From positions 1-59,785 of the IMG/VR virus record IMGVR_UViG_3300006169_000032: 59,785 nucleotides of DNA, one strand, 5' to 3'. The position numbers and the translations under genes were made by a program. Within the stretch, counting starts at the first letter, position 1, and each line of letters starts with the position of its first letter. Source of the DNA: a virus (Duplodnaviria > Caudoviricetes). Positions 12,561-41,528 of this stretch are shown piece by piece. The notes beneath the pieces are model-generated. The model ran no database searches. It had not been told where the DNA came from and saw only the letters and a program-made list of their open reading frames with translations.

Positions 12561-12707
12561 ACAACATTTGGATTCAGACACACATCTTATTGTTCGCTTT
12601 GCAGGTTGTGGCATTGTCTTTGGGTGCGTCAGCGGGTATAGTTACCGTCCCGTTCGTCGTGCTCCATTTTGTTACCGCCTTTGGCTTTGAGTTTCTAGGA
12701 GAACGTC

Positions 12708-14905: not shown

Positions 14906-14937
14906 ACACGAGCCGGTAGTCATGGTATAATGGAGGT

Positions 14938-22559: not shown

Positions 22560-23230
22560 AAGATTCATAACACTACAGGTTTTGTGATGATGTTACGATT
22601 GTGTTACGGACCATATACAAAAAGAAGCGATTTCTGTCCATTTGCTATACAAATTGCACAATGAAAGCCCAGAAATCGTAAAAATTGCACAATTCCCGCG
22701 TTTTTCCCAGACCTTTCGTAATTTGCCCCATGATACACTCTATGCTATACTACTAGTAGATGAGAAATAGGTGGGAATGGTAGTCGGCCTCTAAAGACCT
22801 ACCGCCCGGTGCTGATTACTCTCCGTGCAACAGCAATGGACCCGTAATTAGGTATCCTAGGAAGCAATGAACCAGACCGGGGAGCCGAGAAGGTGCTAAC
22901 TTAAGATATTTCCGCTTTTTTCAAAGCCCCTTCGTAATGCGCTTTGCGCTTGCTTACGCAAAGGGCTATTGGTGTTGTTTGCGTTCGAAGAATGTAAAAT
23001 TCCCGCGTTTCGTAAAGGGCTTTCGTAAAGAGGGTTGCGCAAAAAAAAAATCCCGCGTTTGCGGGAACCCTTTCGTAAAGGGCATTTGGGATTTCCCCTG
23101 GGGTTCGGGAAACTGGCATGTTCCGCTGTCAGCGGAAAACGGGGGTTGTCCGAAATGTCCGCTTCCCCCTGGGGGCGTTAAGCCCCCAGCCTTGATTCCT
23201 AAGAATCAAGGCCAGAGACTTTCGATGAAT
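22560..23230. repeat. Non-coding repeat-rich switch region, candidate genome end/terminal-repeat boundary
   Basis: AAATTGCACAAT x2 (22651, 22682), AATTCCCGCGTTT (22691, 22998, variant 23049), several TTCGTAA, A10 tract 23041-23050; convergence of + and - gene blocks. Confidence 0.6.
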
Positions 23231-24190
23231 CTAGATAGCCCTCACAAGTTCAAGAGCCTGAGCACGGAACGTGGCGGTTGCACCGTCCAGACCCATACCG
23301 GCCATTGCGAAGTTCTCCAGACCATTCTCAGTGTTCTGAATGGTGCGACCCCACTGGTTGCGCTCAACAAGAGCCTGAAGCGCACCGAACGCGGTCCCGC
23401 GAACCGGGGCGTTGGGCTGGCCCTTCCACGCCTCCGAGTACAGTTCCATGTTGTTGTCCCACTTGGTCTGAGCACCCTTCTTGTTCTCCTTCGGGCGCTC
23501 ACCCATCAGGCTACCGACAATCTCGAAAAACTTCTTGTCGGTGCACTTCTTCTGGAACAGGGCGTTGGACTCAGCCTCCAGGGCGTCAACCCAGGCGTTC
23601 GTCTCCTTCCACGCCAGGCGCAGCGCACGAATGCGGTCCTGAACCGTGAGAGTGTGACGAATCTTGACGGTATCCGTCAGACCCTTCTTCATGAACCTGA
23701 ACTGGTTGAAGCAACCCAGACGCAGGGCGTCACGACCGAGCACGAAGGCACCGGAGCCGTCATGCGTGGTGATGACCGAAATGGACGGCTTGATTTCGTC
23801 AGCCGCACCCTTCGGGTCGATGATGATGGTACGGCCCACGTCAGCCTGACCGTACACAATCTTACCGCCCTTGAAAGAACCAGCGGCGAACCACTTGGGC
23901 GAAAGTTCGTCCACCAGGCCGAACGCCTGCTCATTCTGGACCTCGCCATACCGCTCACCGTGAATGCCGAGACGGTCCAGACCGCCATCGAACGGGTTGG
24001 TGCGAATGGCCTCAAAAGCCTTCGTGGACGTGCGAGCGTCCGTGACAATCTCACGGAGACGGACGTCCCACTTGGCGAGATTTGCGAGGCGAAGCATCTC
24101 CGCGCTCGTGGTGACCTCGTGGTCAAACACGGTGCCGCGAATGAAGGCGGCAGGCTGGCGGGATGCGAAGGTGGTGAGAGAACGAGACAT
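23231..24190 (-). CDS. DUF932-family protein
   Basis: ERY..VQNE.AF, AGSF.GG, THDGS, RL.C.N, IRHT, RGTAFGALQA.E motifs. Confidence 0.85.
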   Translation of the reverse strand: MSRSLTTFASRQPAAFIRGTVFDHEVTTSAEMLRLANLAKWDVRLREIVTDARTSTKAFEAIRTNPFDGGLDRLGIHGERYGEVQNEQAFGLVDELSPKWFAAGSFKGGKIVYGQADVGRTIIIDPKGAADEIKPSISVITTHDGSGAFVLGRDALRLGCFNQFRFMKKGLTDTVKIRHTLTVQDRIRALRLAWKETNAWVDALEAESNALFQKKCTDKKFFEIVGSLMGERPKENKKGAQTKWDNNMELYSEAWKGQPNAPVRGTAFGALQALVERNQWGRTIQNTENGLENFAMAGMGLDGATATFRAQALELVRAI

Positions 24191-24220
24191 TGAAACTCCT
24201 ATCGAACGGTTGATACAACG

Positions 24221-24250
24221 AGTATAGCATGAGTCGGAGAGTCGTGTCAA
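24221..24250 (-). promoter_or_regulatory. Sigma70-type promoter
   Basis: TTGACA-18-TATACT on minus strand. Confidence 0.8.
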
Positions 24251-24323
24251 GTAAAGAGTCTGGGGTGTCTCAGTATGTGGACGCCCCCGGGGCGTCACCC
24301 TGAGTGACCAGGGTGACCCTCCG

Positions 24324-24467
24324 TCAGAGGTCTTCGACCCGACCGGCGAACCGACCATTCTCGTCACGCACGGTCAACTTGATAACCTGAATGCGCTCCG
24401 ACTTGACCCGGGAGTCACGACCATCGTTGTCGATTTCCCAAATCTCGAAACCAGCCTGAGTTGCCAT
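24324..24467 (-). CDS. Small hypothetical protein (47 aa)
   Basis: AAAGG RBS; RDENGRF motif. Confidence 0.5.
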   Translation of the reverse strand: MATQAGFEIWEIDNDGRDSRVKSERIQVIKLTVRDENGRFAGRVEDL

Positions 24468-24531
24468 TTCTGCCTTTCTGAGAGTGTTTTGAAAGAGGGG
24501 GAGGGGAGGGCCTACCGGCCCTCCCCTGGCA

Positions 24532-24888
24532 TCACGCCTGCGGCGTGGGGTCCGACAGAGCCGCGCCAACGGCGGTCAGGGCCTCAGCGGAGAGGCGACC
24601 ACGCTTGCCAGCGGACTCACCAGCGAGGCGACGGGCCTCCGCAACCGGAACCTGCACGGTGCGGGAGCGGGCCTTGCCAGCCTTGGTGTTCTTGGACACC
24701 TTGACGGCCACGGTGGACTCGTCCTTGGTGCCGAGAACGTACTTCTCACGCGGGTTGGCCGCGTGGAACGCCTTGACGGTCTCGGGGTGGAGACGGCCAC
24801 GGCTACCGGGGGTCGGAACACCCTCGGGCTTTGCGGAAGCGAACCACTCACGGACACGAGCGGCGGAAACGGTCTTACGAGCAGCCAT
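24532..24888 (-). CDS. Lsr2-like DNA-binding protein
   Basis: VREW...GSRGRLHPETVKAF and a second KRGRLSAEA motif; AAGGA RBS. Confidence 0.7.
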   Translation of the reverse strand: MAARKTVSAARVREWFASAKPEGVPTPGSRGRLHPETVKAFHAANPREKYVLGTKDESTVAVKVSKNTKAGKARSRTVQVPVAEARRLAGESAGKRGRLSAEALTAVGAALSDPTPQA

Positions 24889-24927
24889 GGTGTTTTCCTT
24901 TCGTTGGCTGTTTGACTTGATACGACT

Positions 24928-24957
24928 AGTATACGCTAGTGGGGCGGTAGTTGTCAA
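24928..24957 (-). promoter_or_regulatory. Sigma70-type promoter
   Basis: TTGACA-18-TATACT. Confidence 0.8.
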
Positions 24958-25103
24958 TAGGTTGGGGTAGACTTTACTTTAGGATGCTAGAATGCCTGCG
25001 AAGATAGCCCCGAAGACACTACCGGCCAAACCCCAAAGTAAGCCGACGAATGTCACCAGAACGATGATTGCGCCGACGAGCACGAGGATTATCCACAATT
25101 CCC

Positions 25104-25499
25104 TCATGAGTTGCGCTCTGCGCCGTCGTTGACGACAATCACAGGAACATAGCCCGATGTGTTGGACACAATGGCACGGTGCGACTCACACGGGCAATAG
25201 GTCAATGAAAGGCCGGTAAGGAAGCAGGCGGCACGCATCGACCCATATACCTTCTTGCCGTCTATCCAGGCAAAGACTTTGGCGTTGGGGCCATAGACAG
25301 GGGCTTGTGTTTCAATGACCCCAGACTCTACCGGCTTCGTGACAGTCTTCGTCTTGGGAGTTACAGACGGCTTGCGCTTTGGCGTACTGTCTGTATTGCC
25401 CATCGCGGCCCGGTAGGCTTCAGTGATGTGTCTCGGCATACGCCCACGTCCCGGCTTCACATCATAGCCGTTGGCGATTGCCCATTCCTTAGGAGTCAA
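25104..25499 (-). CDS. Protein with N-terminal Lsr2-like DNA-binding motif
   Basis: KEWAIANGYDVKPGRGRMPRHITEAY; TTG start after GGAGAGG. Confidence 0.7.
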   Translation of the reverse strand: MTPKEWAIANGYDVKPGRGRMPRHITEAYRAAMGNTDSTPKRKPSVTPKTKTVTKPVESGVIETQAPVYGPNAKVFAWIDGKKVYGSMRAACFLTGLSLTYCPCESHRAIVSNTSGYVPVIVVNDGAERNS

Positions 25500-25626
25500 G
25501 GGGCACAACCTCTCCACCGGGCGCGGAAACAAGGCCGGTATAGATTACGATTTCCCCGTCGTCAATGTGCTCATCAAACGTGGCGGTGGGGATGATAGCG
25601 AGTATCTGCTGGATTAGGTCGTCCAT
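25489..25626 (-). CDS. Small acidic protein (45 aa)
   Basis: ATG just after TACAAT -10 box. Confidence 0.55.
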   Translation of the reverse strand: MDDLIQQILAIIPTATFDEHIDDGEIVIYTGLVSAPGGEVVPLDS

Positions 25627-25699
25627 GGCTCTATTGTACCTCATTCTCGGTGATTTGGGAAGGGGCGTCTCAGTATGTGGACGCCCCCGGGGTGCCCGA

Positions 25700-26188
25700 T
25701 TAGGCCCTATTGATACCAAAGTCCACAATGTACCACATGCCGTCGAATTCGTCAATGATGACGTTGCAGGCCAGAATGTCCGAAAGGCCGGTAGCGTCCA
25801 TGAGGTCATTACACAACCTATTGGCACAAACAGGAAGGTGACACCGGCAGTCACCAGCGAAACACCATGGAGCCTCAATACCCCGAATGTACTCCATAAC
25901 AATGACAATGCCGTTGGCCGTGTCAATTCGTGCCATGTCAGGCACAGCGAAGTCATGGGGGAGGCTCATCTGGGAGACACGAAGCCAGTTGTCATACTCG
26001 GCCTTTTGCTGACTGGCAAAGTCAATGTCACAGTTGACCTTGTATACCAGCCCGTCCGGCCCGAGATAGGCGACGCGGGTGCCACCGACACCCACAATCT
26101 CAAAATCCTCAACCTCGGGAGGTTCTAGCCTATCTTGTGCCAGTGCGACACGCTCAGCGAGGGCAATCATGTCTGTCGTTATCTCCAT
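25700..26188 (-). CDS. Minimal protein-kinase-like protein
   Basis: GVGGTRVAY Gly loop, VYKV lysine, alphaC Glu, VMEYI hinge, DILACNV catalytic loop, IVDFG. Confidence 0.75.
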   Translation of the reverse strand: MEITTDMIALAERVALAQDRLEPPEVEDFEIVGVGGTRVAYLGPDGLVYKVNCDIDFASQQKAEYDNWLRVSQMSLPHDFAVPDMARIDTANGIVIVMEYIRGIEAPWCFAGDCRCHLPVCANRLCNDLMDATGLSDILACNVIIDEFDGMWYIVDFGINRA

Positions 26189-26293
26189 ACAAGTATGGTA
26201 CCGCGCCTTTACCATCCATGTCTAGAGTTAAGAAGGTAAAGAGAAGGTAAAGCCCCAGGGGCGTCACGCTCCGTAATGGAGCGTGACCCACCG

Positions 26294-26542
26294 TCAATCA
26301 GGACAATGATAAACGTGTTCTACATATTGCCCGTAGACACGCCTGCCCATATAACGATAGTGGCCCAACTTTCTGGCCTCATTTGCCTGTGCAGGGTCGA
26401 ATTCATAGGACCCGGTATCGTCATAGACTGTGGCTATTTCGATAATGTCCCGACAATCACCAAAGGCCGGGAGTGAGTTCCCGGCCCCTGTGATGCTCCT
26501 AACGGTATCTCTACCGCCGAAATTGAGCAAATCAAACATCAT
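26294..26542 (-). CDS. Hypothetical protein
   Basis: Abuts upstream gene. Confidence 0.55.
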   Translation of the reverse strand: MMFDLLNFGGRDTVRSITGAGNSLPAFGDCRDIIEIATVYDDTGSYEFDPAQANEARKLGHYRYMGRRVYGQYVEHVYHCPD

Positions 26543-27295
26543 TCACCTTTTCTTCACCGAGAACAGAACGTCCCCGCGACCGTCAATGCAAATGCCACAA
26601 CGACCACATGCAGAACCCTTTTCCGTGATAAGCGGAATGCGCTTTCCATTCTCGGGACAAGGATATGACTTTCGGGCGGTATCAATGATGGTATCCCGAG
26701 CCTCAGCAAATGTGTCTGCTACCGTCGCAATGTTGACTCCATTGTAGCACATTGCGACCTCGTTTGCAAGGGCAATGTTTACCGGGTCAGCGGAGAGGTA
26801 AACGGTCAGATTCTCAGCCTTTGAAATGACCGGAATAACGTTCAATTCAGGGGTAAAGGAACGGGTGTAAGCCCAGAATTGCACGTCAGGAAAGAGGTTG
26901 ATTGTGTCAACCCACGCCTGCGCATAGTCCAGGGAATAGAAGTCGCCATCCCAATGAATGCGGAAATACTGCTCGGAAATGGGAAGGCCGCGCTTTTGAC
27001 AGTCACGAACAAAGTCCTGGACCATTTCGATAAGCAGGGCACGCATCGCCGGAATACCGCCCAGATAATCCGCGTAAAGAATCTGCTCAAAGTTGGAAGT
27101 GAGGACATTGCGCACGCCCTTGTAAATCTTTTCCAACTTGCCAGCATAGCAAATGCGCTCACAGAATGAGGTTGCACCAGGACATGCAAAAGCCTTTCCG
27201 GCCGGTAGGCCAAAAGAATTGGCAATCTTAGCCGTCTTACCATTAGGGCTAGGGAGGTTTGTCACCTTGCGGTCTGCTGAGCGTGTGAGAGTCAT
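26543..27295 (-). CDS. Gp88-like protein (radical-SAM-like Cys motif)
   Basis: FGLPAG..CPGAT.FC...CYA, FRIHWDGDFYS, FWAYTRS, C..C..C C-terminus. Confidence 0.8.
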   Translation of the reverse strand: MTLTRSADRKVTNLPSPNGKTAKIANSFGLPAGKAFACPGATSFCERICYAGKLEKIYKGVRNVLTSNFEQILYADYLGGIPAMRALLIEMVQDFVRDCQKRGLPISEQYFRIHWDGDFYSLDYAQAWVDTINLFPDVQFWAYTRSFTPELNVIPVISKAENLTVYLSADPVNIALANEVAMCYNGVNIATVADTFAEARDTIIDTARKSYPCPENGKRIPLITEKGSACGRCGICIDGRGDVLFSVKKR

Positions 27296-27527
27296 GTGTC
27301 TATTCTAGGGTATCGTAACCCATGTGTCAAGGGGTGTCTCAGTATTTGGACACCCCCGGGGTGTCCGGTTTAGGCCGGTTCGAACATTCTCCTACCCTGC
27401 TCCAGAAAATCCCTCTCTTCAGGGAAAATGTTGGCACGAATGCACAGGAAGCCATATTCGTCAAAATCCCAGGTCATGTTCGGGAACTGACGCTGAACTT
27501 CCATCAGTCGGGCTACAATGTGCTCTC

Positions 27528-27917
27528 TCACTGGTTGCTCCTGAGGTAGTAGAAATCACGGCCAACGGCGTAGAGGAAATCCGTTCGCTCTACCGGCTCG
27601 CCTGTCTTGTGGTCCTGAAAATAACCCTTCTCGAAATGATAGGTTACCTTCCGCATATCCTTTCGGACACGAAAACTGGGCGGTAGTTGGGTTGGTTGCT
27701 GGTCAATCAACTCCCCTATTGCCCAAGCATGTACGTTACGAACCCCCTCAGCCCTAGCACGCTTAACGCCTGAATTATGGACAACAAACTCCACATCAGA
27801 AAGCACAACTGTTCCAGCATAGTAGGCTCTACCGCCCTTTCTCATGGGTGTGACCGAAATGCATTCCTCGACCCCGCTGGTCACCTTGTTGCGGTGAGGA
27901 TGAATCTTGACTCTCAT
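27528..27917 (-). CDS. Hypothetical protein
   Basis: 129-aa ORF, RNVHAW motif. Confidence 0.65.
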   Translation of the reverse strand: MRVKIHPHRNKVTSGVEECISVTPMRKGGRAYYAGTVVLSDVEFVVHNSGVKRARAEGVRNVHAWAIGELIDQQPTQLPPSFRVRKDMRKVTYHFEKGYFQDHKTGEPVERTDFLYAVGRDFYYLRSNQ

Positions 27918-28093
27918 CGGGTGTAAACCACAACTTCTCTGTTGATGGAATCATATTCGACTCGGACTGGCTTACCCTGTCCACCCTGAAACCTCACCGG
28001 GCACGTTGCCGCAGACGGGTTTTTGGTGATAAGGTACGACAGGGCTGACGAGAGGCCGACAGCCGTGCCGCCGGTAGTTGTTGTTTGTTTCAT
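27914..28093 (-). CDS. Hypothetical protein
   Basis: ATGA coupling on both sides. Confidence 0.55.
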   Translation of the reverse strand: MKQTTTTGGTAVGLSSALSYLITKNPSAATCPVRFQGGQGKPVRVEYDSINREVVVYTR

Positions 28094-28317
28094 GATGTCC
28101 AGTCCGTTATCCGAAGAATGGTGTCTGAGGCTTGGAGAAATCCATGGAGCATGAGCCCGTTTCCAGTAACAAGGTCGTACCAAGAACCCAATTCCTGACT
28201 ATACCACTCTCCGTTAGGAGAAGCGATTGCCAGTACATACAAAGTCCTGTGGTCAGCAACAATTTGTGCCTTCGCCTGGTCACCCGTCATCGGCCCTTCG
28301 TGCTTGTTGAGATTCAT
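28090..28317 (-). CDS. Hypothetical protein (leaderless)
   Basis: ATG 6 nt after TTGACA-18-TACCAT promoter. Confidence 0.6.
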   Translation of the reverse strand: MNLNKHEGPMTGDQAKAQIVADHRTLYVLAIASPNGEWYSQELGSWYDLVTGNGLMLHGFLQASDTILRITDWTS

Positions 28318-28735
28318 AGAACAATGGTAACATCGTCTTGTGTCTGGTGTCAAGGGTTGTCTCAGTATGTGAGAACCCCGGGGGAAATCAACAGAACAGG
28401 GGATGCTCGCCAGCAATCACACGTCGTACGCCATGCGACCAACGCCACTCCAAGCAGGGAAAGGATGCAACTTGTGTTCCACGTAATTATATGCCAGAGG
28501 TCCGGTTACAGTGACTTCGCGCCCGCTCACATGCCTAGGTCATGAATCTTGCGCAGCGGATAGGTTTGTCCACACGCCAACTTACAGTGATTTGTTGTGA
28601 GAACCACAGAGGTTCCATGCATCACCGGGAGTTTCGTTATCCCCTGTTCTGTTGTACCAACAGTATAGCATGGAGTCTCCACGCTCCACAAGAGGGAATC
28701 GTAAACCTCTCACTATGTGAGACACCCCCCGGGGG

Positions 28736-29086
28736 CTATGCGGGACAAGAAAGAGTTTGCGAATACTCCCTAAGTTCATCGGTGACGTGATACCACACAT
28801 CGAATTCTTTTGTTGTTGCTTCAGACTGAGGGGGACCGAAGTAACGTGCAAGGGCATTACCAGGGTTCTCACCCTTTTCTACCGCCTCGGCCACCCAATT
28901 CTCAATGAGGGCAGTAGGGTCCTCGATAACCTGGAATGCATGACGGTGGTATGTGTCATCGACATATACAGGATAGTTGATTCCGTCAATTTCTGTGCCA
29001 TTGACACGAGGGAAGGAGATACCCTGGTACCGCCAGCCATCGGGCTGCTCGCCGCTGTCTGTCATCTTCTCAGACCACTTGAACAT
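28736..29086 (-). CDS. Hypothetical acidic protein
   Basis: GAGG RBS; stop abuts CCCCCCGGGGG. Confidence 0.65.
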   Translation of the reverse strand: MFKWSEKMTDSGEQPDGWRYQGISFPRVNGTEIDGINYPVYVDDTYHRHAFQVIEDPTALIENWVAEAVEKGENPGNALARYFGPPQSEATTKEFDVWYHVTDELREYSQTLSCPA

Positions 29087-29469
29087 CAGAACCTCTTTAC
29101 TAGATAGAAGTCGGTAAAGGAGGACCAGTTTTTGCTGTACCGCCGCGAGCGCCACTCACCCCGTTGGGTGATTTCCTCCCAGGACAACTCCACGTAGTGT
29201 GTTCCCTTGTCGAGAAAGAATCTCATTCACCAGTCCCTATCCCTGCTACCGGCTTTGGGCCGCTTGTACGCCTTGCCACTCGGAATCGGGGCGGTAGCGT
29301 TGGAGCGACGAATTTCCATCATCGCATCATACAACGCCCTGTTACGAGCCTTGGGATTCTGCTTTCTCTTACTCATGTCTCCATGATACCTAGTCTATAT
29401 CGTAAAGTCAATGCTTAGAAGAGGGTTTTACTTGTTCTTTACTTTCCCCCGGGGTGTCCGCATAGCGGA

Positions 29470-29754
29470 CTAGAGAGCCTCCCAATACATGACATGCTCA
29501 ACAGGGAATCGCAGAATGCGAGAGTCGAAAGTCTCAAAAGTCAGGAAACCACGCTCAACGCAAATGGCGTCAACGTCCACACCCTCAACGGTGATATTGT
29601 CACCATTGAAGAAATTGACCTCAACGTCCAGCAGAGGCTTGTCAGCCTCATCGAATGCATCCTCAGCCATGACCTTAGCCTGTGCAGCCTCAGCCTCCAC
29701 AACGTGAAGGCACTCGTTCTCACAACCGAGAGGACAGTTCATCATTATCCCCAA
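29470..29754 (-). CDS. Hypothetical acidic protein
   Basis: ORF in cassette; start uncertain. Confidence 0.6.
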   Translation of the reverse strand: MGIMMNCPLGCENECLHVVEAEAAQAKVMAEDAFDEADKPLLDVEVNFFNGDNITVEGVDVDAICVERGFLTFETFDSRILRFPVEHVMYWEAL

Positions 29755-29987
29755 AGTTCACGGCGCTGAGGCTGAGCATCCTCACGGACAATCATGCCCT
29801 GCCGCACCGCCAGGTCATTGTCGTATCCGAGCACCCTCCCGATGTTCATGGAAATCTTGTCGGTGATATCCCGAACCTCGGAGCGACCACCGACGCGACG
29901 GAGAATGCCCTGTAGAGCACAAGCCTCGGTCTCGGTGAGCACGATTGTAACCTCAGACTCACGCTTGACAATGGACACCTTGCTCAT
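29745..29987 (-). CDS. Hypothetical protein
   Basis: GGAGG RBS, ATGA overlap. Confidence 0.6.
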   Translation of the reverse strand: MSKVSIVKRESEVTIVLTETEACALQGILRRVGGRSEVRDITDKISMNIGRVLGYDNDLAVRQGMIVREDAQPQRRELWG

Positions 29988-30238
29988 ACCAGAGCCTCCG
30001 CACCGTCGAGCACCTGAATGTGGAACTCGTGACGAGGACGGGGAGCGTGCCCGGTCCACAGAACGTGACGCTGATGTGCGTCATCGGAAAGGCGAAGTTG
30101 ACGCTTGGTGAAGCGAACAGCACCCTTCTTCTTAAGGTTCACGAGAACCTTGGTGTCAACAGCCTCGGTGACGAGACCGTCGCGGCCTGCCTCCACAACA
30201 CGGAGCAGGAGGGCCTTCTGAGGGGCGGTAAGGGCCAT
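29984..30238 (-). CDS. Hypothetical protein, possible winged-helix
   Basis: AAGGA RBS; LT..QK.LL...L.KKG.V pattern. Confidence 0.6.
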   Translation of the reverse strand: MALTAPQKALLLRVVEAGRDGLVTEAVDTKVLVNLKKKGAVRFTKRQLRLSDDAHQRHVLWTGHAPRPRHEFHIQVLDGAEALV

Positions 30239-30359
30239 GGTGGCTTCCTTTCATCGACTGATACCTCTATTATGCCTGACACTACCTGAGATTGCAAGGG
30301 TTTGAAAGTAAAGACACGGAGAGTTAGGTAAACTACTCTCTGTGAGCCCCCGGGGGGAA

Positions 30360-30890
30360 AGTAAAATGATAACCGCTATCACCTATATTTTGTAAACCTA
30401 CCGCATTCTTGGTAGGACGTTCTTACGGTTATCTTAGGGGAGTGCGTGGCATTCTAGGTGTCTCCCGCAAGTTGTGTTACCGGCCCGAAGATGGTTCTCC
30501 GGTAGTAGTGCCGGGACTCGCGTCCTGGGCCGGTAAGCATTGGAAGGTAACGAGGTGATGAGTCTCGTCGGCAAGGGTAATCATCCCCTAAGCATCCCCT
30601 GTCTAGTCGGTTCCTGCCTGCCATTTTGGGGGCACCCGTTTTAAGTTGCGTTCCCTTTGGCCTTCCGCCGTATTGTGCAAGCGGATATCTACTCTTTATA
30701 GCCGTCTTAAGGCAACCATCTTCGGATTTAGGGCATTGGGATTCAAACCCGACCCTTACCGTCTCTGAGCGCGATATCTCTTACCTATGGCTCGGCTTGC
30801 AAGTCTCTTTTGAATTATGATGCTGCCGGTAGTGGAAGGGCCACCGAACCCCGGGCGAGTTTCGAGCCTTCGCCCTTGCCTCTCGACTAT
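30360..30890 (-). ncRNA. Candidate large structured non-coding RNA (~530 nt)
   Basis: Own promoter TTGACA-18-TAGACT (30926-30897), no minus-strand ORF of 60 aa or more, many perfect stems incl. 12-bp 30485-30496/30714-30725 and 10-bp 30477-30486/30527-30536. Confidence 0.65.
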
Positions 30891-30908
30891 GACTCTAGTC
30901 TACCACGG

Positions 30909-31271
30909 CTAGAGGCCGTCTGTCAACCTTGTCTTATATTCTGGACACTTGAATGCTACTGCTGCACCAATCAGAGTACCGGCCACCTTTGGCGGAAAGC
31001 CCTCGGAGTCATAGAGCAGGAAAACATCGGTGAACGTCTGTCCCTGGTCGAACAGCGAGCAGACCACTCGGGCGTTCTTGAAAAGCATCCTGTCTGGAAC
31101 ACTGTCTAGTTGTGGCGCTTCCTCCCTCAGCAGGCGGATATAGAGGTCACGCTTGCTCGGGCCGGTAGCCTGGGCGGTAGATTCCGTCTTATCCCCCGTA
31201 GGAACAGACAAACCACCAGTACAGCCCGTAAGGACAAAAAGGCTGACAAGAATGGCAAGTACAAACTTCAT
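30909..31271 (-). CDS. DUF732-like lipoprotein
   Basis: Lipobox LTGC; D.YI..LR...ARVVC..FDQG...AAVAFKCPEY. Confidence 0.7.
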   Translation of the reverse strand: MKFVLAILVSLFVLTGCTGGLSVPTGDKTESTAQATGPSKRDLYIRLLREEAPQLDSVPDRMLFKNARVVCSLFDQGQTFTDVFLLYDSEGFPPKVAGTLIGAAVAFKCPEYKTRLTDGL

Positions 31272-31278
31272 GGTTCTC

Positions 31279-31542
31279 CTAGTCGATGTAGACGTGGACT
31301 GTTACAAGGCGGTCAAGGTGACGCTCGACCCTACCGCCAAAATGTCCGACTCCATGGTCGGCCAGGTCGATAAGTTGCGTGTCGGTGAGGTTGCAAGCAA
31401 CATAGTTGAGCAGGCGCAGCGTGTGAATGTTCCTGCCGAGGTGACGGGTCATACCGAGCCGGTCGACTACCGGGCCGGTAGCCATCATATTTTGGTAGTC
31501 ACGAACACGCCTTGCGTTGTACTCTTCGAAAGTCTCACTCAT
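31279..31542 (-). CDS. Hypothetical protein (leaderless)
   Basis: ATG 7 nt after TTGACT-17-TATACT. Confidence 0.6.
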   Translation of the reverse strand: MSETFEEYNARRVRDYQNMMATGPVVDRLGMTRHLGRNIHTLRLLNYVACNLTDTQLIDLADHGVGHFGGRVERHLDRLVTVHVYID

Positions 31543-31766
31543 ACCTATGAGTATAGGCGTACTGAGGGGGAAAGTCAATGGGCTCAAGGTAAAGAGCAGG
31601 TAAAACCCCCTGGGGCACTACTCTGAGCAAAACCCCGTTACTGTGAGTATATATCCCGGGTGAATGTCAATCGGGCACAATAGCGCCCGGTCGCTCTCCT
31701 GTAGCGCCGCCTTGATAAGGTCAATGACGATATCGGGGCCTTCGAAGGTCACATCAATCTGTTTCA

Positions 31767-31976
31767 TCAGAAATCTCCGTGGTACGGGTTGGGGTCGTCG
31801 TCATACATACCCTGCTCGACAGGGTTCCAGAAGTCGTACGGCTCGTCATCGTAGTAGTCGTAGAAATGCTCAGGCTCGTCATAGACGGGCTCGTCGGGCT
31901 CGCCAACGAACATCACAGGAGCGTACTCCATGGGCAGAATCTCGTCGTGGTACAGGTCACCAAATGTGTCTTCCAT
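31767..31976 (-). CDS. Very acidic Asp/Glu/Tyr-rich small protein
   Basis: 69 aa with no Lys/Arg. Confidence 0.6.
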   Translation of the reverse strand: MEDTFGDLYHDEILPMEYAPVMFVGEPDEPVYDEPEHFYDYYDDEPYDFWNPVEQGMYDDDPNPYHGDF

Positions 31977-32052
31977 GCTTCTAATATACTTCGTACCGGC
32001 CCCAATTGCAAGAGGGAGAAGGTAAAAGAAAGGTAAAATGCCCCCAGGGGCG

Positions 32053-32199
32053 CTACCGTCCGTGTTGATACCGTGACCCACCGTTACGGCGATTGGTCAT
32101 ACCCTCACTCCGCTGGTGGACATACTTTGTCTCTTTGCGGAACTTGCGGCCCTTGCGTGGACGCATGGGCTCACGTGTGGTATCAGTAAAGCGGGCCAT
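32053..32199 (-). CDS. Very basic small protein (48 aa)
   Basis: GAGG RBS; stop abuts CCCCCAGGGG. Confidence 0.5.
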   Translation of the reverse strand: MARFTDTTREPMRPRKGRKFRKETKYVHQRSEGMTNRRNGGSRYQHGR

Positions 32200-32359
32200 C
32201 GGTTTCCTCGAAATCAACCTCCAGGGAGGCCATGTGGTCATCCTCGATGTACCGGGACTCGACACCACGGTCGTAGCCGTCGTAGTATTCATCGGAGGCG
32301 TAGTCGGCCTGCTCCCGACCCTCATAGCCGTCACGGTAGCCAATCATCAAATCGTTCAT
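32183..32359 (-). CDS. Acidic Tyr-rich small protein (58 aa)
   Basis: Translated by hand (MNDLMIGYRDGYEG...); ATG just after TTGACT-17-TAACCT. Confidence 0.6.
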   Translation of the reverse strand: MNDLMIGYRDGYEGREQADYASDEYYDGYDRGVESRYIEDDHMASLEVDFEETDGPLY

Positions 32360-32433
32360 ACCTCTAGGTTAGTGCCCCCAGACGTAAAAGTCAATAGCCG
32401 AAGGTAAAAGGAAGGTAAAGCCCCCAGGGGCGA

Positions 32434-32697
32434 CTACTCTCCGTAGTCACACCCTTCGAAGGGGTTGGGAATCTCTGTGTAGCAAATGTCGCAAACCCAC
32501 TGGCCATCGCGCCCGCACGAGGCGTCACCGTGGTCACAGTCCTCAGGGTCCACGTCATACTCGGGCTCGTCGTAGCCGTAGAAAAGGTCGGGGTCGTTCG
32601 CACGCTCCCAGGCGTAGTAGTCATCCAACTCAGCCTCAAAGCGGAGTTCGGCAGCGGTCATGAAAGGCTCACCGGCCTCGTTCATCCAATTGCTCAT
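32434..32697 (-). CDS. Acidic small protein with Cys cluster
   Basis: ATG just after TTGACA-18-TACGGT; stop next to CCCCCAGGGG. Confidence 0.65.
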   Translation of the reverse strand: MSNWMNEAGEPFMTAAELRFEAELDDYYAWERANDPDLFYGYDEPEYDVDPEDCDHGDASCGRDGQWVCDICYTEIPNPFEGCDYGE

Positions 32698-32850
32698 GGG
32701 TCCACCGTACCATACGTAATGCCCCAATGTCAAGGGGATTTGGTAAAATCCCCTGGGGGTGTCCGATTTGGACACCTTTCGGCTAATTGGTCTTGTCACA
32801 CCACCCAAAGTGCTCGAAAACAGCACCGCACTCAGCGCACTCGTGCATGA

Positions 32851-33042
32851 TTACCTCCAAACCAGGCAGTTGCGGGAAATGCCGTGGACAGGCTGACCAC
32901 AACGGATGCAGCGGTCTTCGTGCTCAGCCGGGTCGGCGTAGAACTCGTTAAGGTACCACAGCATGTCGTCGTCGGAAACGGACATTTCGGACTCCTCGCG
33001 CAGGTAGGTCGGGTCGGTCTGGGCTGCCTCGGTGATGTTCAT
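32851..33042 (-). CDS. Acidic small protein
   Basis: ORF in cassette; CIRC motif. Confidence 0.55.
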   Translation of the reverse strand: MNITEAAQTDPTYLREESEMSVSDDDMLWYLNEFYADPAEHEDRCIRCGQPVHGISRNCLVWR

Positions 33043-33239
33043 GAGAACATCATAATTCCAATACCGGCCTTCGTCAAGGACAAATCGGACAGAGAAAAGT
33101 AAAGAGAAGGTAAAACCCCCAGGGGGACTACTCAGAGTAACGACATTTGACGGTCAGTCATTGAAAATCTCCGAAATCTCTAGAAGTGCCTGCTCTGCCA
33201 CAAGCATGACACTACCGGCCAGAATCAGCAGAATGTCCA

Positions 33240-33428
33240 TTACGGCAAACGCTCCATCTTCCTCGTGATTTCTTCGATGAGACGCTCCATATTTCCATAG
33301 TGCAACGGGGTCATGTGACGCTCACCAATGACAATTGCATCCTGCAATGCTTGACGGGTTTCGAAAAGGAGCCGGTATTCCACGGTCCTTTCGTCATTCC
33401 AAGTAACCATTACAGAGCCTTCTTCCAA
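33240..33428 (-). CDS. Hypothetical protein
   Basis: ORF in cassette. Confidence 0.45.
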   Translation of the reverse strand: MEEGSVMVTWNDERTVEYRLLFETRQALQDAIVIGERHMTPLHYGNMERLIEEITRKMERLP

Positions 33429-33806
33429 GACTGGCGCTCACGACGCTTGGCCGCACGCCGGTCACGCTTGCGCGTGTCGTGGCTACACGAAATGGTCTTA
33501 CCAAGCATCTTCATCAGAACACACTCTCCCAACAGCACTCACACTGGTCCATGCAGAACACGCACAGGTCGCCTCCACATTCCGGACATACCGCCATCTT
33601 CTCGACGCACGTGTGGCAGAAGCGGGCGGTCCATTCGGTGATTCTGTAGTAAAGGCTCATACTCTTAAGATACGCCTGTCTAGGGTAAAAGTCAATAGCC
33701 TACCGGCAACTTTACCTTTTCTTTACTTTCCCCAGGGGTGTGACAGAGAGTAGTCGAAAGGTAACTTTACAAGGACCAGATAAAGTGCCCTAAGACGTGT
33801 AAGACG

Positions 33807-34106
33807 CTACCAGAGAACAGTCTCCCCTCTAGCGAGCATGTCCGCCTTCACCCCAGCGAACAGACCGAGAACATCTTGACCTAATCTCGGGTCGGTAGCG
33901 GGATTAATTCCCCTATTACGGAGTTCATCTTCCACCCTGGAAAGAATCATGATGGAAACAAAGGCGGTAGCGAAGTTTGGAGACTCCCCATTCTTAGGTA
34001 CCGCCTCCATCTGCTCAGGAGTCATGTCCAGAATGCGAAGAATGTTGTTCTTCTGGTTACGGGCAACCCAGATAAGCCGGGTGGTGCTCTTTTCGGTCCA
34101 ACTCAT
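33807..34106 (-). CDS. Hypothetical protein
   Basis: ATGA overlap. Confidence 0.6.
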   Translation of the reverse strand: MSWTEKSTTRLIWVARNQKNNILRILDMTPEQMEAVPKNGESPNFATAFVSIMILSRVEDELRNRGINPATDPRLGQDVLGLFAGVKADMLARGETVLW

Positions 34107-34306
34107 GCTAGTGGGTCCGTTCCATCCTCGATAATGCATACTGACGTTGGGTACCAGCCCTGGCAGTGAGACATGAGGTAGGCTGTCTGTTCAGCCTCCA
34201 GACCATCTACCGCCTCAACGATGGCACGGTGCCAGTCCATAGCGAGAATGCCCTCATGCAGCCCATCATGGGTGGAGAGCATCACATCGACTACGAATCT
34301 TGCCAT
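34103..34306 (-). CDS. Hypothetical protein (leaderless)
   Basis: ATG 6 nt after TTGACA-17-TAGTCT. Confidence 0.6.
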   Translation of the reverse strand: MARFVVDVMLSTHDGLHEGILAMDWHRAIVEAVDGLEAEQTAYLMSHCQGWYPTSVCIIEDGTDPLA

Positions 34307-34560
34307 ACTTACAGACTACCGTCCCTTGCGAGGCTTGTCAAGCCTGTCGAAGAAAAAGTTTCCGAATGCGAGAGCGAGAAAGAACGAGGCAGCCATGAGG
34401 CCAGGCTCAGTGAGCCCGATGCAGAACAGACCGGCGATGATGAAGTAAGCAATTGTCCAACCCATGACTAAAGCATAACTCGTAACCGCGTGGAAGTCAA
34501 TGGCTACCGCCCGACTTTACCGGGATTTTACTTTCCCCAGGGGTGCCCGAAATGTCCGAT

Positions 34561-34782
34561 TCAGGCACCCATAACGTCTACACGCTCAGCGGGGTCAAGA
34601 TTGTAGTCAACAGAATCACCGTCAATTTCCGAAACAGCGGAAACGAAAACGAATTCACCCTCGTCCACCTGAGACTTGACACGCAGAATGTCATAGGGAT
34701 GAAGGTCGTTCTCCTGAATGGTAATCAAATCGCCATCCTCGATTTCATCGGCGTAGATTGTGTCAATGACGTTCATTTTCAC
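34561..34782 (-). CDS. Acidic hypothetical protein
   Basis: GTGA overlap. Confidence 0.6.
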   Translation of the reverse strand: MKMNVIDTIYADEIEDGDLITIQENDLHPYDILRVKSQVDEGEFVFVSAVSEIDGDSVDYNLDPAERVDVMGA

Positions 34783-35006
34783 CTTACATTCATGATGAAG
34801 TGCTGGAAGACCATGTCGTTTGTTTCGAAGAATTCAACCGAGGACCACGGTAAAAGGGTGATTTCCCGGCCCTCATTTTCGAAGAAGTAGACGCCCTTGT
34901 GATTGATGTTGAGGCCGGTACGTCCCTGGTCATCCTCTCTACCCTCAAAATAGTAGAATCGGGGTCCGGCTTGGAACCGGGCGAAACCGCTTTGCTTGTC
35001 AGCCAT
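34779..35006 (-). CDS. Hypothetical protein
   Basis: GAGG RBS. Confidence 0.6.
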   Translation of the reverse strand: MADKQSGFARFQAGPRFYYFEGREDDQGRTGLNINHKGVYFFENEGREITLLPWSSVEFFETNDMVFQHFIMNVR

Positions 35007-35007
35007 T

Positions 35008-35238
35008 TCAGACCTCAACAATCTGCTGTGCAAGGTGCGAGTAGCGAGCCACCGTGCGACCCTTGAAAATGTGCTTCACGTCAACACTGACGATGCGGCC
35101 CTTGATACGGTTGTCAATGAGCCAACCACGAACCATGTCGTAGTCGGGCATGGTGTCGAAGGGAGCCCGGTAGGAAAAGTTGGGAAGCGGCCCGAACACG
35201 TCCGAACCCCCGTCAAGGGTGATAGTAGCACTGAACAT
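35008..35238 (-). CDS. Hypothetical protein
   Basis: AAGGAG RBS after promoter. Confidence 0.65.
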   Translation of the reverse strand: MFSATITLDGGSDVFGPLPNFSYRAPFDTMPDYDMVRGWLIDNRIKGRIVSVDVKHIFKGRTVARYSHLAQQIVEV

Positions 35239-35560
35239 GGTTTCTCCTTATCTTCTAAGTACACCTTAACATGACTACCGCCCGAAAGTCAATGGGTTCT
35301 GGGGGACTTTACCAGTTCTTTACTTCCCCTGGGGATGCCCGAAATGTCGGGCCTGTCCGATTCAGAGAATCGGCTTGGAACCGTCCTCGCAGCGGGTGGA
35401 ACCGGCGAGCAGAACGCTCACGTGGGACCAAACCGGAACGGTGAGGGAACGCACGAGAACCTCGTGGCAGTTGGGACAGGTGGTCTCAGTCTGGAACATT
35501 TTGTTTCTCCTAACCTTCTACTTCTATTAAACACCCTACCGGCCCGGAAGTCAAGGGGTT

Positions 35561-35749
35561 TCAGGTAAAGTCTCGGTCCATGTCATCCCACGTGAGGGTT
35601 CCGTCCATGAATTCCTCCATAACGAAGCCCGTCCACTCAACCAACTCGTCAGCAGAGTACCCGTCCATCTCACCACGGAAGGCGCGGGTGGAGTACAGGG
35701 CCTTGGCGAAGGCGGCTGCTGTGCGGAGGTTCATCGTTTCTGTATTCAT
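35561..35749 (-). CDS. Hypothetical protein (leaderless)
   Basis: ATG 6 nt after TTGACA-17-TATAGT. Confidence 0.6.
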   Translation of the reverse strand: MNTETMNLRTAAAFAKALYSTRAFRGEMDGYSADELVEWTGFVMEEFMDGTLTWDDMDRDFT

Positions 35750-35789
35750 ACCTTCACTATAGGCCATAGTTCCCCGTGTGTCAAGGGCC

Positions 35790-36420
35790 GGTAGTAATCA
35801 CATGGTAAAATTCCCCGAGAAAATTCCCACGATTAGTAACCCCACGCGTAAGGGGACATTCGGTACAAAACGGACACCCCAGGGGTGGCGACATTCGTCG
35901 CAATTCCCGCGTTTCACCTATACCCCCGTAATGCGGGACATATACCCATATAGTAGGACATGTCGGACATGTCCGATTTATGCGGATAAAGCAGGATTGC
36001 ATGTGCCAGCACCTAGATACATGCATGGTGCAAGCAACTAGCCTGCTGGCACGGTACAGGCACGGTCTAGGCGTGGCATAGGCTGTAAGGCCGTGTATGG
36101 CGCTCTAACGGCTTTCTACGGTGTCCTAGGTACAATCACCCGCGCAGAATTTCTAGGCCGTTAGAAAGGCGCACATACGCGCCTACGCCTACGGCTCACC
36201 TATTACATGATTGTGATTCAGACACCATAGGGCAAAACCGGACATTTCGATATTTGCATGGTGCAAGCACAGTATCAGCATTTGAGATTTACGCCTGAAA
36301 AGGTAAAGGCACGGTTAAGGGAAGGTTAAGGGAAACGTCGTTATGTCCTCTAGTGTCCGATTTGTCCTGGTTTGCTATCTTGTGTCCTCTGTGCATAGTG
36401 GTGCTAGCACCACCCAAACA
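35790..36420. repeat. Non-coding repeat-rich region, candidate second terminal-repeat boundary
   Basis: AATTCCCGCGTTT 35902, TGCATGGTGCAAGCA x2 (36022, 36255), GGACAT/TGTCCG clusters. Confidence 0.55.
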
Positions 36421-36438
36421 CAACCGACGGAGGCGACC

Positions 36439-36876
36439 ATGATTTCTCAGGCTCACCTAGACGCAATCCCCACCATGCCTGGTTTCACGTCGGACCCTGG
36501 TGGCAGTGTGCGGGCGGCGGTGCGGCGGTACCTTTGGACCTATGCTGGCGGGCGGTGTGTCGTCTGTGGGCAGGCTACGCGCCTAGAGGCTAAGCCTACG
36601 GATGCCGACCGCGCAGAGGGTTGCCACGCGCTCCCCGCACCGGGACGTGGCGGGTACGTTGCACCCAACGTGTTCAATGGCTGTCGGAAATGCAACGAAA
36701 ACATGAAAGACCGGGACGTTCGGGGGCAAATCGGACAATTTGAACTTCCCCACCTGATTCCGGCATCCTGGCCGAAGCGGAAGGAACTGGTCGAAATGTA
36801 CGGAGCCGACAAATCGGACATGATGGACCACATCGCCCAAAGCAACGCAAAGGCACGCGAACTAGGGTGGATGTGA
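36439..36876 (+). CDS. HNH-like endonuclease
   Basis: GGAGG RBS; CVVC...CHALP...GG...N....CRKCN. Confidence 0.7.
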   Translation: MISQAHLDAIPTMPGFTSDPGGSVRAAVRRYLWTYAGGRCVVCGQATRLEAKPTDADRAEGCHALPAPGRGGYVAPNVFNGCRKCNENMKDRDVRGQIGQFELPHLIPASWPKRKELVEMYGADKSDMMDHIAQSNAKARELGWM

Positions 36877-37616: not shown

Positions 37617-37805
37617 TCATCGGACGTTCACCACTTCGTAGAAGTTATCTCTGGCCCATTTCTTCGCCCTTGCTACCGCGAAAATCCCTTCTACCGAGTT
37701 GATGATGCGATGGCTGCTGTACTCCAGCACCAGCGCCCCGTCCTGGACCTTCTTGATTTCCACCCAGCGGCGGTCGTCAAAGGTGTCTTCATTTAGCGTG
37801 CTCAT
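37617..37805 (-). CDS. Hypothetical protein
   Basis: GGAGGGAG RBS, overlaps thyX end. Confidence 0.55.
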   Translation of the reverse strand: MSTLNEDTFDDRRWVEIKKVQDGALVLEYSSHRIINSVEGIFAVARAKKWARDNFYEVVNVR

Positions 37806-40406: not shown

Positions 40407-40602
40407 ATTTCTCCATCGTATTAAATTTTGCCCCCGAGCCTCGTGTGAGAGTCGAACTCACTTCTCATGCGTACCGAGCATGTGTAATAACCAGTATACT
40501 AACGAGGCAGTTTGGTATTCCATGCCTTGTGGAAATAGTGAACGAGGGTCGCTATTCCTCCGAGTATCAGAAGAACAACAACAATCCATACGAGCCAGTC
40601 CA

Positions 40603-41079: not shown

Positions 41080-41528
41080 AGCGAGCCAGATAAGAGAATC
41101 GAACTCTTCTTTCTTCTTTACGAGAGAAGTGTAATATCCACTATACTAATCTGGCGTGGAGGCGGGGGGCTGACTTAAACAACCCACAGGCACTAAATCA
41201 GAGTGCCATGCTATCGTTACATCACCCGCCACGGTACCTCCATGGTACCATACCGGGCGGTAGGTGTCAAGGTGAGTTGAACCGTCATCTACTTTATTCT
41301 TAGTAAGTAGCATAGTCCCTGGTATATCTAGGTATATATATAGATACCCCGGAAACTCCTGTAGTTTAGGGTACCGGACTTTGCCTTAGATGTCAAGTTG
41401 ACGAATATCGGAAAACTTTACCTAGGGGCTGGCGTTAGGAATCCAGGTCTGCTATCATGGAGGAACAACCAGCGAAAAAATCATGGTAAATCAGGCTACC
41501 AAAGGGTAGTCCAGGGAGGTTATTTTCT

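Follow-up and report, generated by a model that had tools for sequence, protein, structure and literature searches.

Gene content and affiliation of the array

The window analysed here is the 59,785-bp stretch of IMG/VR virus record IMGVR_UViG_3300006169_000032, which is 46% complete by CheckV. Between positions 23095 and 35885 it contains a minus-strand array of about 17 short transcription units with about 40 small open reading frames (ORFs), and the junctions between these units carry copies of a 9-bp palindrome, CCCCNGGGG, hereafter the core. The portal, protease and capsid genes of the window point to Streptomyces phages of the family Stanwilliamsviridae (BE cluster, siphoviruses of ~130 kb); the best capsid relatives are at most 69% identical, and the portal protein is 64% identical to that of phage Genie2. 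The gene calls in the block, 40 on the minus strand, are our own and were made with no gene finder; coding potential assigns the genes of the block to this strand. A Pfam family was found for two Lsr2-domain proteins, a DUF932 protein, an L5 gp82-like protein and a DUF732 protein, and for none of the other scanned ORFs of the block. There is no paralogue pair among the 40 ORFs, and an origin of the array by gene duplication was rejected on this ground.

The BE1 Streptomyces phages, including Genie2, StarPlatinum and Karimac, have been described to carry direct terminal repeats of 10.7-11.5 kb with 20-25 ORFs, an lsr2-like gene among them, and no junction motif is named in that description (PMC5764925). 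The left end of Genie2 consists of ~26 small minus-strand genes with ~100-nt gaps and an Lsr2-like gene, followed by ThyX and the structural genes. The same order and strand are found in the window, with the DUF932 gene, g27295, an Lsr2-like gene, ThyX and the structural/portal genes in succession. Collinear same-strand homologues in Genie2 were found for 2 of the 40 block ORFs, the DUF932 gene (Genie2 gene 4, 41% amino acid identity) and g27295 (gene 9, 44%), and the product of g27295 is also 68% identical to Wakanda gp259. Since layout, strand, neighbours and two genes match Genie2, the region 23.1-35.9 kb is most probably the counterpart of the BE terminal repeat, collapsed to a single copy in the metagenomic assembly; the IMG/VR entry gives the record as linear with no end repeats. 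A Genie2-like HNH gene was not found at the inner edge of the array, where the plus-strand ORF 36343-36876 has no Pfam match. The best explanation of the block is an early gene array, of the host-takeover type, in a ~130-kb actinobacterial siphovirus related to the Streptomyces BE-cluster phages.

Number and placement of the core

An exact search of the window for CCCCNGGGG returned 21 matches, which represent 19 distinct sites, as overlapping registers occur at 28726/28727 and 30347/30348. All 19 sites lie within 23095-35885 and zero elsewhere in the window, compared to a chance level of 1.51 (standard deviation 1.29, maximum 6) over 100 dinucleotide shuffles. None of the 19 falls inside any of the 40 minus-strand gene calls. 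The block has 19 gaps of 40 nt or more, of which 16 contain exactly one core and three contain none (35560-35500, 30908-30625 and 24978-24889); the remaining three cores are located at the two ends of the array. With shifted overlaps of exact sites excluded, one-mismatch variants number nine in the window and just one in the block; because these variants are so few, the occurrence of the core is near all-or-none. All 26 of 26 sites share the same eight arm bases, partly by construction, as the sites were retrieved via the motif itself. Positions flanking the core carry at most 0.65 bits and the centre position carries none.

Architecture of the junctions

Read along the minus strand, a junction comprises a stop codon, often a stem-loop, the core, an accessory module, a sigma70-like promoter and the next gene (Table 1). 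The stop codon lies 1-8 nt from the core at seven junctions. Downstream of 14 of the 19 cores, a promoter of the form TTGACx-17/18-TAnnnT is followed by an ORF-opening ATG 6-7 nt past the -10 element, and therefore the mRNA at these junctions would be leaderless. Leaderless mRNAs are common in Actinobacteria. At consensus level, 28 promoter-like sites were matched against 9.3 expected, and in at least 14 units a promoter belonging to that unit directly adjoins the start codon. The promoter begins 16-39 nt from the core, and 92 nt from it at 35877. Downstream of the cores at 24284, 30347 and 35326 lies a promoter-like site, and the genes there have a leader and a ribosome-binding site (RBS); the cores at 23166 and 23095 stand without a promoter ahead of the terminator 23066-23051.

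Two kinds of module were found between core and promoter. GTAAA-N6-GTAAA has 10 exact copies in the window, compared to a chance level of 2.0 for up to one mismatch, and nine of them adjoin cores (five in one orientation and four in the other), giving nine junctions with two GTAAA boxes 11 bp apart. An inverted repeat of the TCTCAGTATGTG type (TCTCAG-type) is present at five junctions (24284, 25684, 27353, 28376 and 28726), set within a GGGG...CCCC hairpin whose end is the -35 element. Neither module is found at the cores 35877, 32750, 30347, 23166 and 23095. On the distal side, the TG(T/C)CCGA box, which reads ATCGGRCA on the transcribed strand, is enriched, with 14 copies in the window against 3.8 expected, whereas TNAC-N5-GTNA is not (10 against 13.7), exact copies of it standing beside only three to four cores. 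The latter pattern resembles the Streptomyces BldD box, but an identity with it was dropped for this lack of enrichment.

The preliminary description of this DNA had placed 19 intergenic palindromes in a single 13-kb block with stop codons close to many of them, and both statements stand, the stops at 28736, 32053, 32434 and 25700 lying 1, 2, 3 and 7 nt from the core, respectively. The four combinations of proximal and distal modules that it listed, at 24284, 25684, 26253 and 34535, also read as described. Its two proximal modules are real but do not account for every junction, and of its two distal modules only TG(T/C)CCGA is borne out. Similarly, the TTGAC-N17/18 promoter that it put after the core is present with its ATG at most junctions, but not at the last two cores of the array.

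The core is often located at the meeting point of two stem-loops. The 40-mers upstream of the cores have a mean folding energy of -11.5 kcal/mol, compared to -7.8 kcal/mol for controls from the block (p = 0.013). Compared to 345 other C4/G4 runs, the core halves pair more frequently with the upstream flank (53% versus 23%, p = 0.006) and with the downstream flank (95% versus 62%, p = 0.002).

Table 1. Features of the array and its surroundings, in minus-strand order from the array start. "Leaderless" marks a start codon predicted to open its transcript; L136 and L148 are two related metagenomic contigs.
Feature	Coordinates	Strand	Associated elements
Array	23095-35885	-	~17 short units (~40 small ORFs); probable counterpart, by position, of the BE-cluster terminal repeat
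Core 1, array start	35877-35885		promoter 35784-35756 (TTGACA-17-TATAGT); leaderless ATG 35749
Core 2	35326-35334		CGGACA/CGGGCA boxes upstream; forward GTAAA repeats 35308-35323; gene with TTGACT -35-like site, leader with AGGAG RBS, ATG 35238
Core 3	34535-34543		strong hairpin upstream; forward GTAAA repeats; promoter 34500-34472; leaderless ATG 34465; orthologue L148:982, with GTAAA repeats flipped there
Core 4	33730-33738		forward GTAAA repeats; promoter 33695-33667; leaderless ATG 33660; junction kept entire in L136 (77% identity)
Core 5	33117-33125		TTTAC repeats; promoter 33077-33049; leaderless ATG 33042
Core 6	32750-32758		hairpin GGTGTCC/GGACACC upstream; GGGGATTT/AAATCCCC hairpin downstream, abutting -35; leaderless ATG 32697
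Core 7	32422-32430		stop codon 3 nt upstream, within hairpin; TTTAC repeats; leaderless ATG 32359
Core 8	32042-32050		stop codon 2 nt upstream; TTTAC repeats; promoter 32011-31983; leaderless ATG 31976
Core 9	31607-31615		stop codon 2 nt upstream; TTTAC repeats; promoter 31578-31550; ATG 31542
Core 10, two overlapping registers	30347-30356		promoter-like site 30297-30269; gene with leader, ATG 30238
Core 11	29446-29454		hairpin GTCCGC/GCGGAC upstream; forward GTAAA repeats; promoter 29411-29383; leaderless ATG 29376
Core 12, two overlapping registers	28726-28735		stop codon 1 nt upstream; TCTCAC-ATA-GTGAGA palindrome; promoter and first gene not clear-cut
Core 13	28376-28384		TCTCA-N5-TGAGA module inside GGGG...CCC hairpin; promoter 28353-28324; leaderless ATG 28317
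Core 14	27353-27361		GGGGTGTC...GACACCCC hairpin abutting -35; promoter 27330-27302; leaderless ATG 27295; gene g27295 common to Wakanda (gp259) and Genie2 (gene 9)
Core 15	26253-26261		10-bp hairpin upstream; TTTAC repeats; promoter 26224-26195; leaderless ATG 26188
Core 16	25684-25692		GGGGCGTC...GACGCCCC hairpin; promoter 25661-25633; leaderless ATG 25626; unit contains Lsr2-domain gene 25104-25508
Internal promoter	24928-24957	-	TTGACA-18-TATACT; no core or hairpin; fronts second Lsr2-domain gene (24532-24888)
Core 17	24284-24292		9-bp hairpin upstream; TCTCAG-type module; promoter 24250-24221; DUF932 gene with leader, 24190-23231 (homologue of Genie2 gene 4)
Core 18, array end	23166-23174		no downstream promoter
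Core 19, array end	23095-23103		terminator next
Intrinsic terminator	23051-23066	-	closes the array; 6-bp stem and T10; sole canonical terminator
Genes convergent toward terminator	1-22.8 kb	+	
Thymidylate synthase gene	37789-38475	-	synteny anchor: ThyX lies just inside the terminal repeat in BE1 phages

Relatives and lineage-specific junction motifs

When metagenomes were scanned for the core-plus-repeat pattern, a single sample yielded two short contigs, L136 (3.7 kb, 5 cores) and L148 (1.3 kb, 2 cores), which are 77-92% identical to the window in shared genes (~82% overall) and have an identical junction order, with a different gene content. In three of three orthologous junction pairs between the window and these contigs, the CCCC/GGGG arms are kept and the centre base is changed, which fits purifying selection on the 4+4 arms with the centre base left free. 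A megablast search of 50,697 phage records with the block as query gave no match, and scans of IMG/VR with composite DNA patterns gave no match or single matches on unrelated contigs. The composite pattern also had 14 single matches in prokaryotic genomes, none of them actinobacterial, which were taken as chance. Since an IMG/VR search with protein g34306 found no relative, L136 and L148, with 5 kb in total, are the sole representatives of the lineage of the window.

The core is lineage-specific, and sister lineages place different array-confined GC palindromes at the equivalent position. Twelve related whole records (72-133 kb) contain 0-3 copies of CCCCNGGGG each, with none in Wakanda or Genie2. 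The two repeat copies of Genie2 (744-12520 and 119645-131251) contain every one of the 43 matches to CCGCCCCGG or its complement in this 131-kb genome, and the motif is situated between a TTCG-loop hairpin and the promoter at nearly every junction. The Genie2-type repeats therefore resemble the window array not only in position, strand, neighbours, the two shared genes and the Lsr2-like gene, but also in having ~100-nt junctions composed of hairpin, GC 9-mer and promoter, with a motif found in the array only. They differ in the motif itself (CCGCCCCGG, quasi-palindromic and in either orientation, instead of CCCCNGGGG), in their GC-rich TTCG-loop hairpins, in genes with leaders and RBS, and in the accessory module, which is AAAAGATCT and not GTAAA. 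In the related 80-kb contig G006, 12 of 14 copies of GGGCGCCC lie in one 11.2-kb block (53511-64688; 5119-16289 of locus L008), where the junction consists of a TTACTCTCCGTAA-type hairpin, GGGCGCCC, a GC hairpin, GGGCTGTCAAG with a TTACGAT box, and the promoter. The arms of this GC hairpin vary in a compensatory manner (GGCC/GGCC versus GCGC/GCGC), and the TTACTCTCCGTAA-type hairpin motif also adjoins several window cores. A further locus, L010, has GGGGCCCC at comparable positions. The Wakanda-type (BE2) phages have neither of the GC motifs CCCCNGGGG and CCGCCCCGG. An array-confined short GC junction motif in Stanwilliamsviridae is an observation of this analysis and was not found in print.

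Several further observations concern these loci. In Genie2, the HNH gene located at the repeat's inner edge has five CCGCCCCGG copies clustered about it. In the Wakanda locus L005 (Wakanda 111452-126614), inspection by eye indicated that many junctions consist of a hairpin followed by AAGCTTGAC, a 6-bp palindrome overlapping the -35 element, and that ATCTCGGGAGA stands ahead of many genes. The box (A)ATCGGRCA is conserved across lineages. In the window it is found at 25693, 32760, 34553, 35354, 35970, 36354, 36730 and 36813, thus recurring next to cores and, immediately inside the array, in non-coding DNA; tandem copies occur at the inner edge of the Genie2 repeat (11418-11783), and it is also present in L005 at 1090-1370.

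The lineage comparison bears on the possibility that the core is functionless, with the junctions being diverged copies of one ancestral cassette under gene conversion and CCCCNGGGG their slowest-decaying remnant. Such an origin would agree with the junction subfamilies, which share 15-35 nt patches at 91-100% identity, and with the centre base, which goes with the proximal module (C/G in 5/5 TCTCAG-type and A/T in 8/9 GTAAA-type junctions; Fisher ~0.003 by our own arithmetic). We nevertheless consider it unlikely, as the bases beside the core are unconserved where the arms are invariant (allowing for the way the sites were retrieved), the arms persist in the relative at junctions with diverged or replaced flanks, and a GC palindrome has been kept independently at the same place by three lineages.

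The same constraint raises the question of whether the core is chiefly an operator, namely that a lineage-specific DNA-binding protein of phage or host reads the 4+1+4 palindrome at every junction, by which the whole early array would be switched together or read-through blocked, in the manner of the repressor stoperators and conserved inverted repeats of other actinophages, and crossover would be a side effect. We regard this as a tentative alternative of some weight, compatible with the cassette mechanism that we favour below. Eight invariant bases around a free centre with uninformative flanks, the near all-or-none occurrence, and the retention of the arms with a changed centre are what a protein site would be expected to display, and motifs specific to each lineage are as expected from co-evolution of protein and site. 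In addition, Cluster O mycobacteriophages carry 34 copies of an invariant palindrome whose role is given as unknown (PMC4351075). On the other hand, no candidate sequence-specific binder was found among 60 ORFs scanned by Pfam and 10 by PHROGs, a weak argument given that ~54% of the genome lies outside the window, and only two Lsr2-domain proteins turned up among the scanned ORFs. The Lsr2 family binds AT-rich DNA. The spacing from core to -35 element (16, 22, 27-30, 33-34 and 39 nt) has no single helical phase and therefore argues against a classical activator, a role which was dropped for this reason. Moreover, 9 bp is short for a helix-turn-helix dimer.

Breakpoints at the junction motif

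The preliminary description had proposed that the core is a crossover point or the site of an architectural protein. For the BE1 phages, seven terminal repeats, ~81% identical across 55-73% of their length, were compared by chained alignments in all 42 ordered pairs. Gaps of 60 nt or longer numbered 180 and distinct breakpoints 153; of the latter, 67 fall within annotated genes and the other 86 are intergenic. Within 10 nt of the BE1 core lie 38 of the 86 intergenic breakpoints, compared to 10.6 ± 3.1 for random intergenic positions, and 25 of the 86 lie within 5 nt compared to 5.5; neither count was reached in 2000 simulations. In Genie2 alone, 5 of 10 breakpoints are near a core, where 14% of the intergenic bases qualify. 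Three clean single-gene indels, chosen for clarity, were read base by base, and in two of the three the change of parent falls exactly on GCCGCCCCGG: where one genome has a single junction, its sequence follows the upstream junction of the other as far as the motif, and the downstream junction thereafter. In the third indel the motif is inverted. These data support the view that cassettes of the sister BE1 phages are gained and lost by crossover at the analogous GC motif, and to this extent the first of the two proposals stands.

In the lineage of the window, the comparison with L136 and L148 offers ~5 kb. At junction 34535, similarity to L148 starts at the -35 element; the -35, the -10 and the ATG of the orthologous promoter (L148:982) are conserved, but the proximal repeats have the opposite orientation and another cassette lies upstream. 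At junction 32750 similarity starts at the ATG, a replacement ends at junction 33117, and junction 33730 is conserved throughout in L136. The flipped repeats at 34535 support a swapping of regulatory modules in this lineage. Together with the unrelated cargo genes, they agree with the earlier view of a modular array with swappable promoter logic. The same recombination process as in BE1 presumably operates here.

A concentration of breakpoints on a short motif could also indicate a dedicated site-specific recombinase or nicking enzyme, with the core as its target and the array as a programmed cassette exchange, integron-like without a classical integrase. The exact switch of parent at a 9-14 nt motif in two BE1 indels and its inversion in the third would suit such an enzyme, as would the excess of breakpoints within 5 nt, and in our impression the motifs resemble the short interrupted palindromes recognised by nucleases. 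However, short-homology recombination together with selection for intact junctions gives the same pattern, and several boundaries in the lineage of the window are located away from cores. A Pfam scan of 60 ORFs of the window, which covers ~46% of the genome, identified no gene for a recombinase or nuclease, and the ORF at the Genie2 HNH position (36343-36876, plus strand) is without a Pfam match. In addition, each cassette has its own promoter, unlike integron cassettes. We therefore consider a dedicated enzyme very improbable.

Proposed mechanism

Based on the junction anatomy and the BE1 breakpoints, we consider it probable that the junctions are terminator/promoter cassettes resembling the PeSL (promoter-early stem-loop) elements of T4-type phages, with a GC-palindrome hinge that doubles as a crossover point. 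Each junction would combine stop and start signals in one composite cassette. A stem-loop would often form at the 3' end of the upstream gene, followed by the invariant CCCC-N-GGGG hinge, then by an accessory module (an inverted repeat in a GGGG...CCCC hairpin, or a pair of GTAAA repeats with 11-bp spacing, of which both orientations occur), and finally by a host-type sigma70 promoter, mostly placed in such a way that the transcript would begin at the ATG. The primary job of the cassette would be to insulate each unit from read-through and then to restart transcription, similar to the T4-type elements. The core may serve as a GC clamp joining the flanking stem-loops, as a lineage-specific protein site, or as both. 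Because the core is the only sequence common to every junction, recombination between junctions would resolve at it, resulting in scar-free gain, loss or replacement of single cassettes with the junction left intact. A crossover at the core would also re-pair distal and proximal modules.

A number of results weigh against this mechanism. Three promoters in the block are without a core. The upstream hairpins are weak or absent at ~6 of the 19 sites, and a U-tract is found only at the terminator closing the array. The 40-mers downstream of the cores are similar in stability to controls (p = 0.12; p = 0.5 in the comparison with C4/G4 runs); because of this, a purely structural role fails to explain the strict invariance of the core. 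In the lineage of the window, ~3 of 6 recognisable homology boundaries lie in junction elements and none is resolved to the core, which leaves the earlier crossover proposal with thin and mixed evidence here, and core-less gene-gene boundaries were found at 872-891 of L136 (reverse complement) and at 33408-33448 of the window. For BE1, the full set of 153 breakpoints compared to random intergenic positions shows no excess within 30 nt (59 versus 52.9 ± 5.9), although this null is ill-matched, setting genic plus intergenic breakpoints against intergenic positions, and the excess appears only in the like-for-like intergenic test. Furthermore, the BE1 breakpoints are non-independent, as the same events recur across the seven genomes, and alignment ends may be pulled toward any motif common to all junctions.

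A bolder extension of the cassette mechanism is that the terminal repeats hold an exchange device, in which a matching phage protein (nuclease, recombinase or clamp) would read the lineage-specific palindrome, insulate the units and catalyse swaps of genes and promoter logic. In effect this would be an integrase-free phage 'integron' with site and enzyme co-evolving. We give this joint proposal a low probability.

Comparison with known systems

According to the literature on T4-type PeSL elements (Arbiol et al. 2010, PMC2839356; Comeau et al. 2014, PMC4122927), such an element combines a promoter and a stem-loop, is rich in G/C tracts, lies between ORFans of plastic regions and mediates modular shuffling (PMC2839356). 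Exchange between neighbouring T4-type cassettes also gives rise to mini-circles. The array in the window is similar in having small composite motifs of putative terminator and promoter repeated among ORFans in a plastic early region, in its strong sigma70-like promoters, judged at consensus level, and in a probable inter-cassette recombination by which insertions, deletions and replacements would arise, with indel ends in the cassettes observed in the sister BE1 lineage. It differs in belonging to an unrelated phage family (its relatives are Stanwilliamsviridae siphoviruses of Streptomyces, not T4-type myoviruses) with an actinobacterial host, in its mostly leaderless genes without a Shine-Dalgarno sequence, in a strictly invariant 9-bp palindrome that is separate from the stem-loop and accompanied by accessory repeat modules, and in its confinement to one ~13-kb, probably terminally repeated, block. 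The array is, by this comparison, an analogue of PeSL and not a member.

The analogy with T4 PeSL elements drawn in the preliminary description is apt; that with integrons is not supported. Similar to an integron, the array consists of tandem small unrelated genes separated by a recurring, recombination-prone site. However, each cassette has its own promoter, whereas integron cassettes are promoterless and read from a common promoter; the recurring site is a 9-bp palindrome, compared to attC of 60-140 bp; and no IntI-type recombinase or integrase is present among the 60 ORFs scanned with Pfam, in a window holding ~46% of the genome.

For Cluster O mycobacteriophages, the published description reports a 17-bp palindromic repeat, TGTTCGGNNNCCGAACA, of unknown function, and a 17-bp direct repeat flanking one gene insertion, which is not stated there to be TGTTCGGNNNCCGAACA (PMC4351075). 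This palindrome is similarly an invariant inverted repeat with a variable centre, present in more than 30 copies per genome, many of them in short intergenic gaps of the leftward early arm. In contrast to CCCCNGGGG, it is longer and of another sequence, and it is distributed genome-wide with about one third of the copies intragenic and no fixed terminator-promoter order.

The phiC31 inverted-repeat operators and the L5-type stoperators are many short intergenic early-region sites at which one repressor controls or blocks transcription. They belong to temperate phages with an identified repressor, and stoperators are asymmetric and orientation-dependent. Their sequences are unrelated to CCCCNGGGG, and no repressor was identified for the array here.

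The only printed occurrence of the motif that the literature search returned, within the text available to it, is bisS of ICEclc, the site of the ParB-like BisD clamp, GAGCTATCCCCnGGGGATAGCTC, a protein-bound palindrome that activates promoters at a distance (PMC12409273). It contains CCCCnGGGG, but is a 23-bp palindrome present in two copies on a proteobacterial element, and its outer arms are missing from the window cores; nor was any ParB-like protein detected in the window. Searches of the literature on the BE cluster, Stanwilliamsviridae (titles and abstracts), Cluster O and phiC31 gave no description of such arrays, or of CCCCNGGGG, for this family.

Other features of the window

The octamer GGSCGGTA occurs 108 times in the window, compared to 2.8 expected, which corresponds to ~1.8 per kb on both strands (for example at 1175, 2057, 9237, 34505 and 54024). 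It has a plus-strand bias of 28:13 and 25:7 in two plus-strand gene regions, its density is unchanged inside large genes (37 copies in 20.2 kb, in several frames), its flanks are uninformative and its spacing is roughly random. L136 and L148 contain 1.5-2.7 copies per kb, and Genie2, Wakanda and four other related loci contain 0-0.3 per kb, which is the chance level. A start-associated role was rejected, as 23 of the 108 copies precede an ORF start compared to 17.9 ± 3.8 for random positions. The density range of uptake-signal and Chi-type genome-wide motifs covers that of this octamer.

Two tRNA-Thr genes on the minus strand (anticodons GGT and CGT; 40436-40508 and 41083-41155) are located between the array side and the ribonucleotide reductase gene. 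As BE-cluster phages carry 43-48 tRNAs (PMC5764925), most tRNA genes would lie outside the window. A 1466-amino-acid plus-strand ORF (52696-57096) between the capsid and head-tail adaptor genes has no PHROG family match.

Implications

In large lytic phages, the genes that act earliest on the host are carried in the long terminal repeats, and nearly all of them are of unknown function. Our data suggest a family-wide design rule for such arrays, in which tiny genes stand behind stop/start junctions hinged on a short lineage-specific GC palindrome, and the hinge is a site of gene exchange in BE1, the one lineage with enough genomes for a test. If true, this would explain the fast turnover of early-gene arsenals, and would carry the PeSL concept over to phages of an unrelated group and to actinobacterial promoters of leaderless genes. 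It would also provide a sequence handle for recognising array boundaries and unit structure in metagenomic phages. In addition, the junctions supply compact natural promoter/insulator parts for Streptomyces-type hosts. The question raised by the array is what reads the palindrome.

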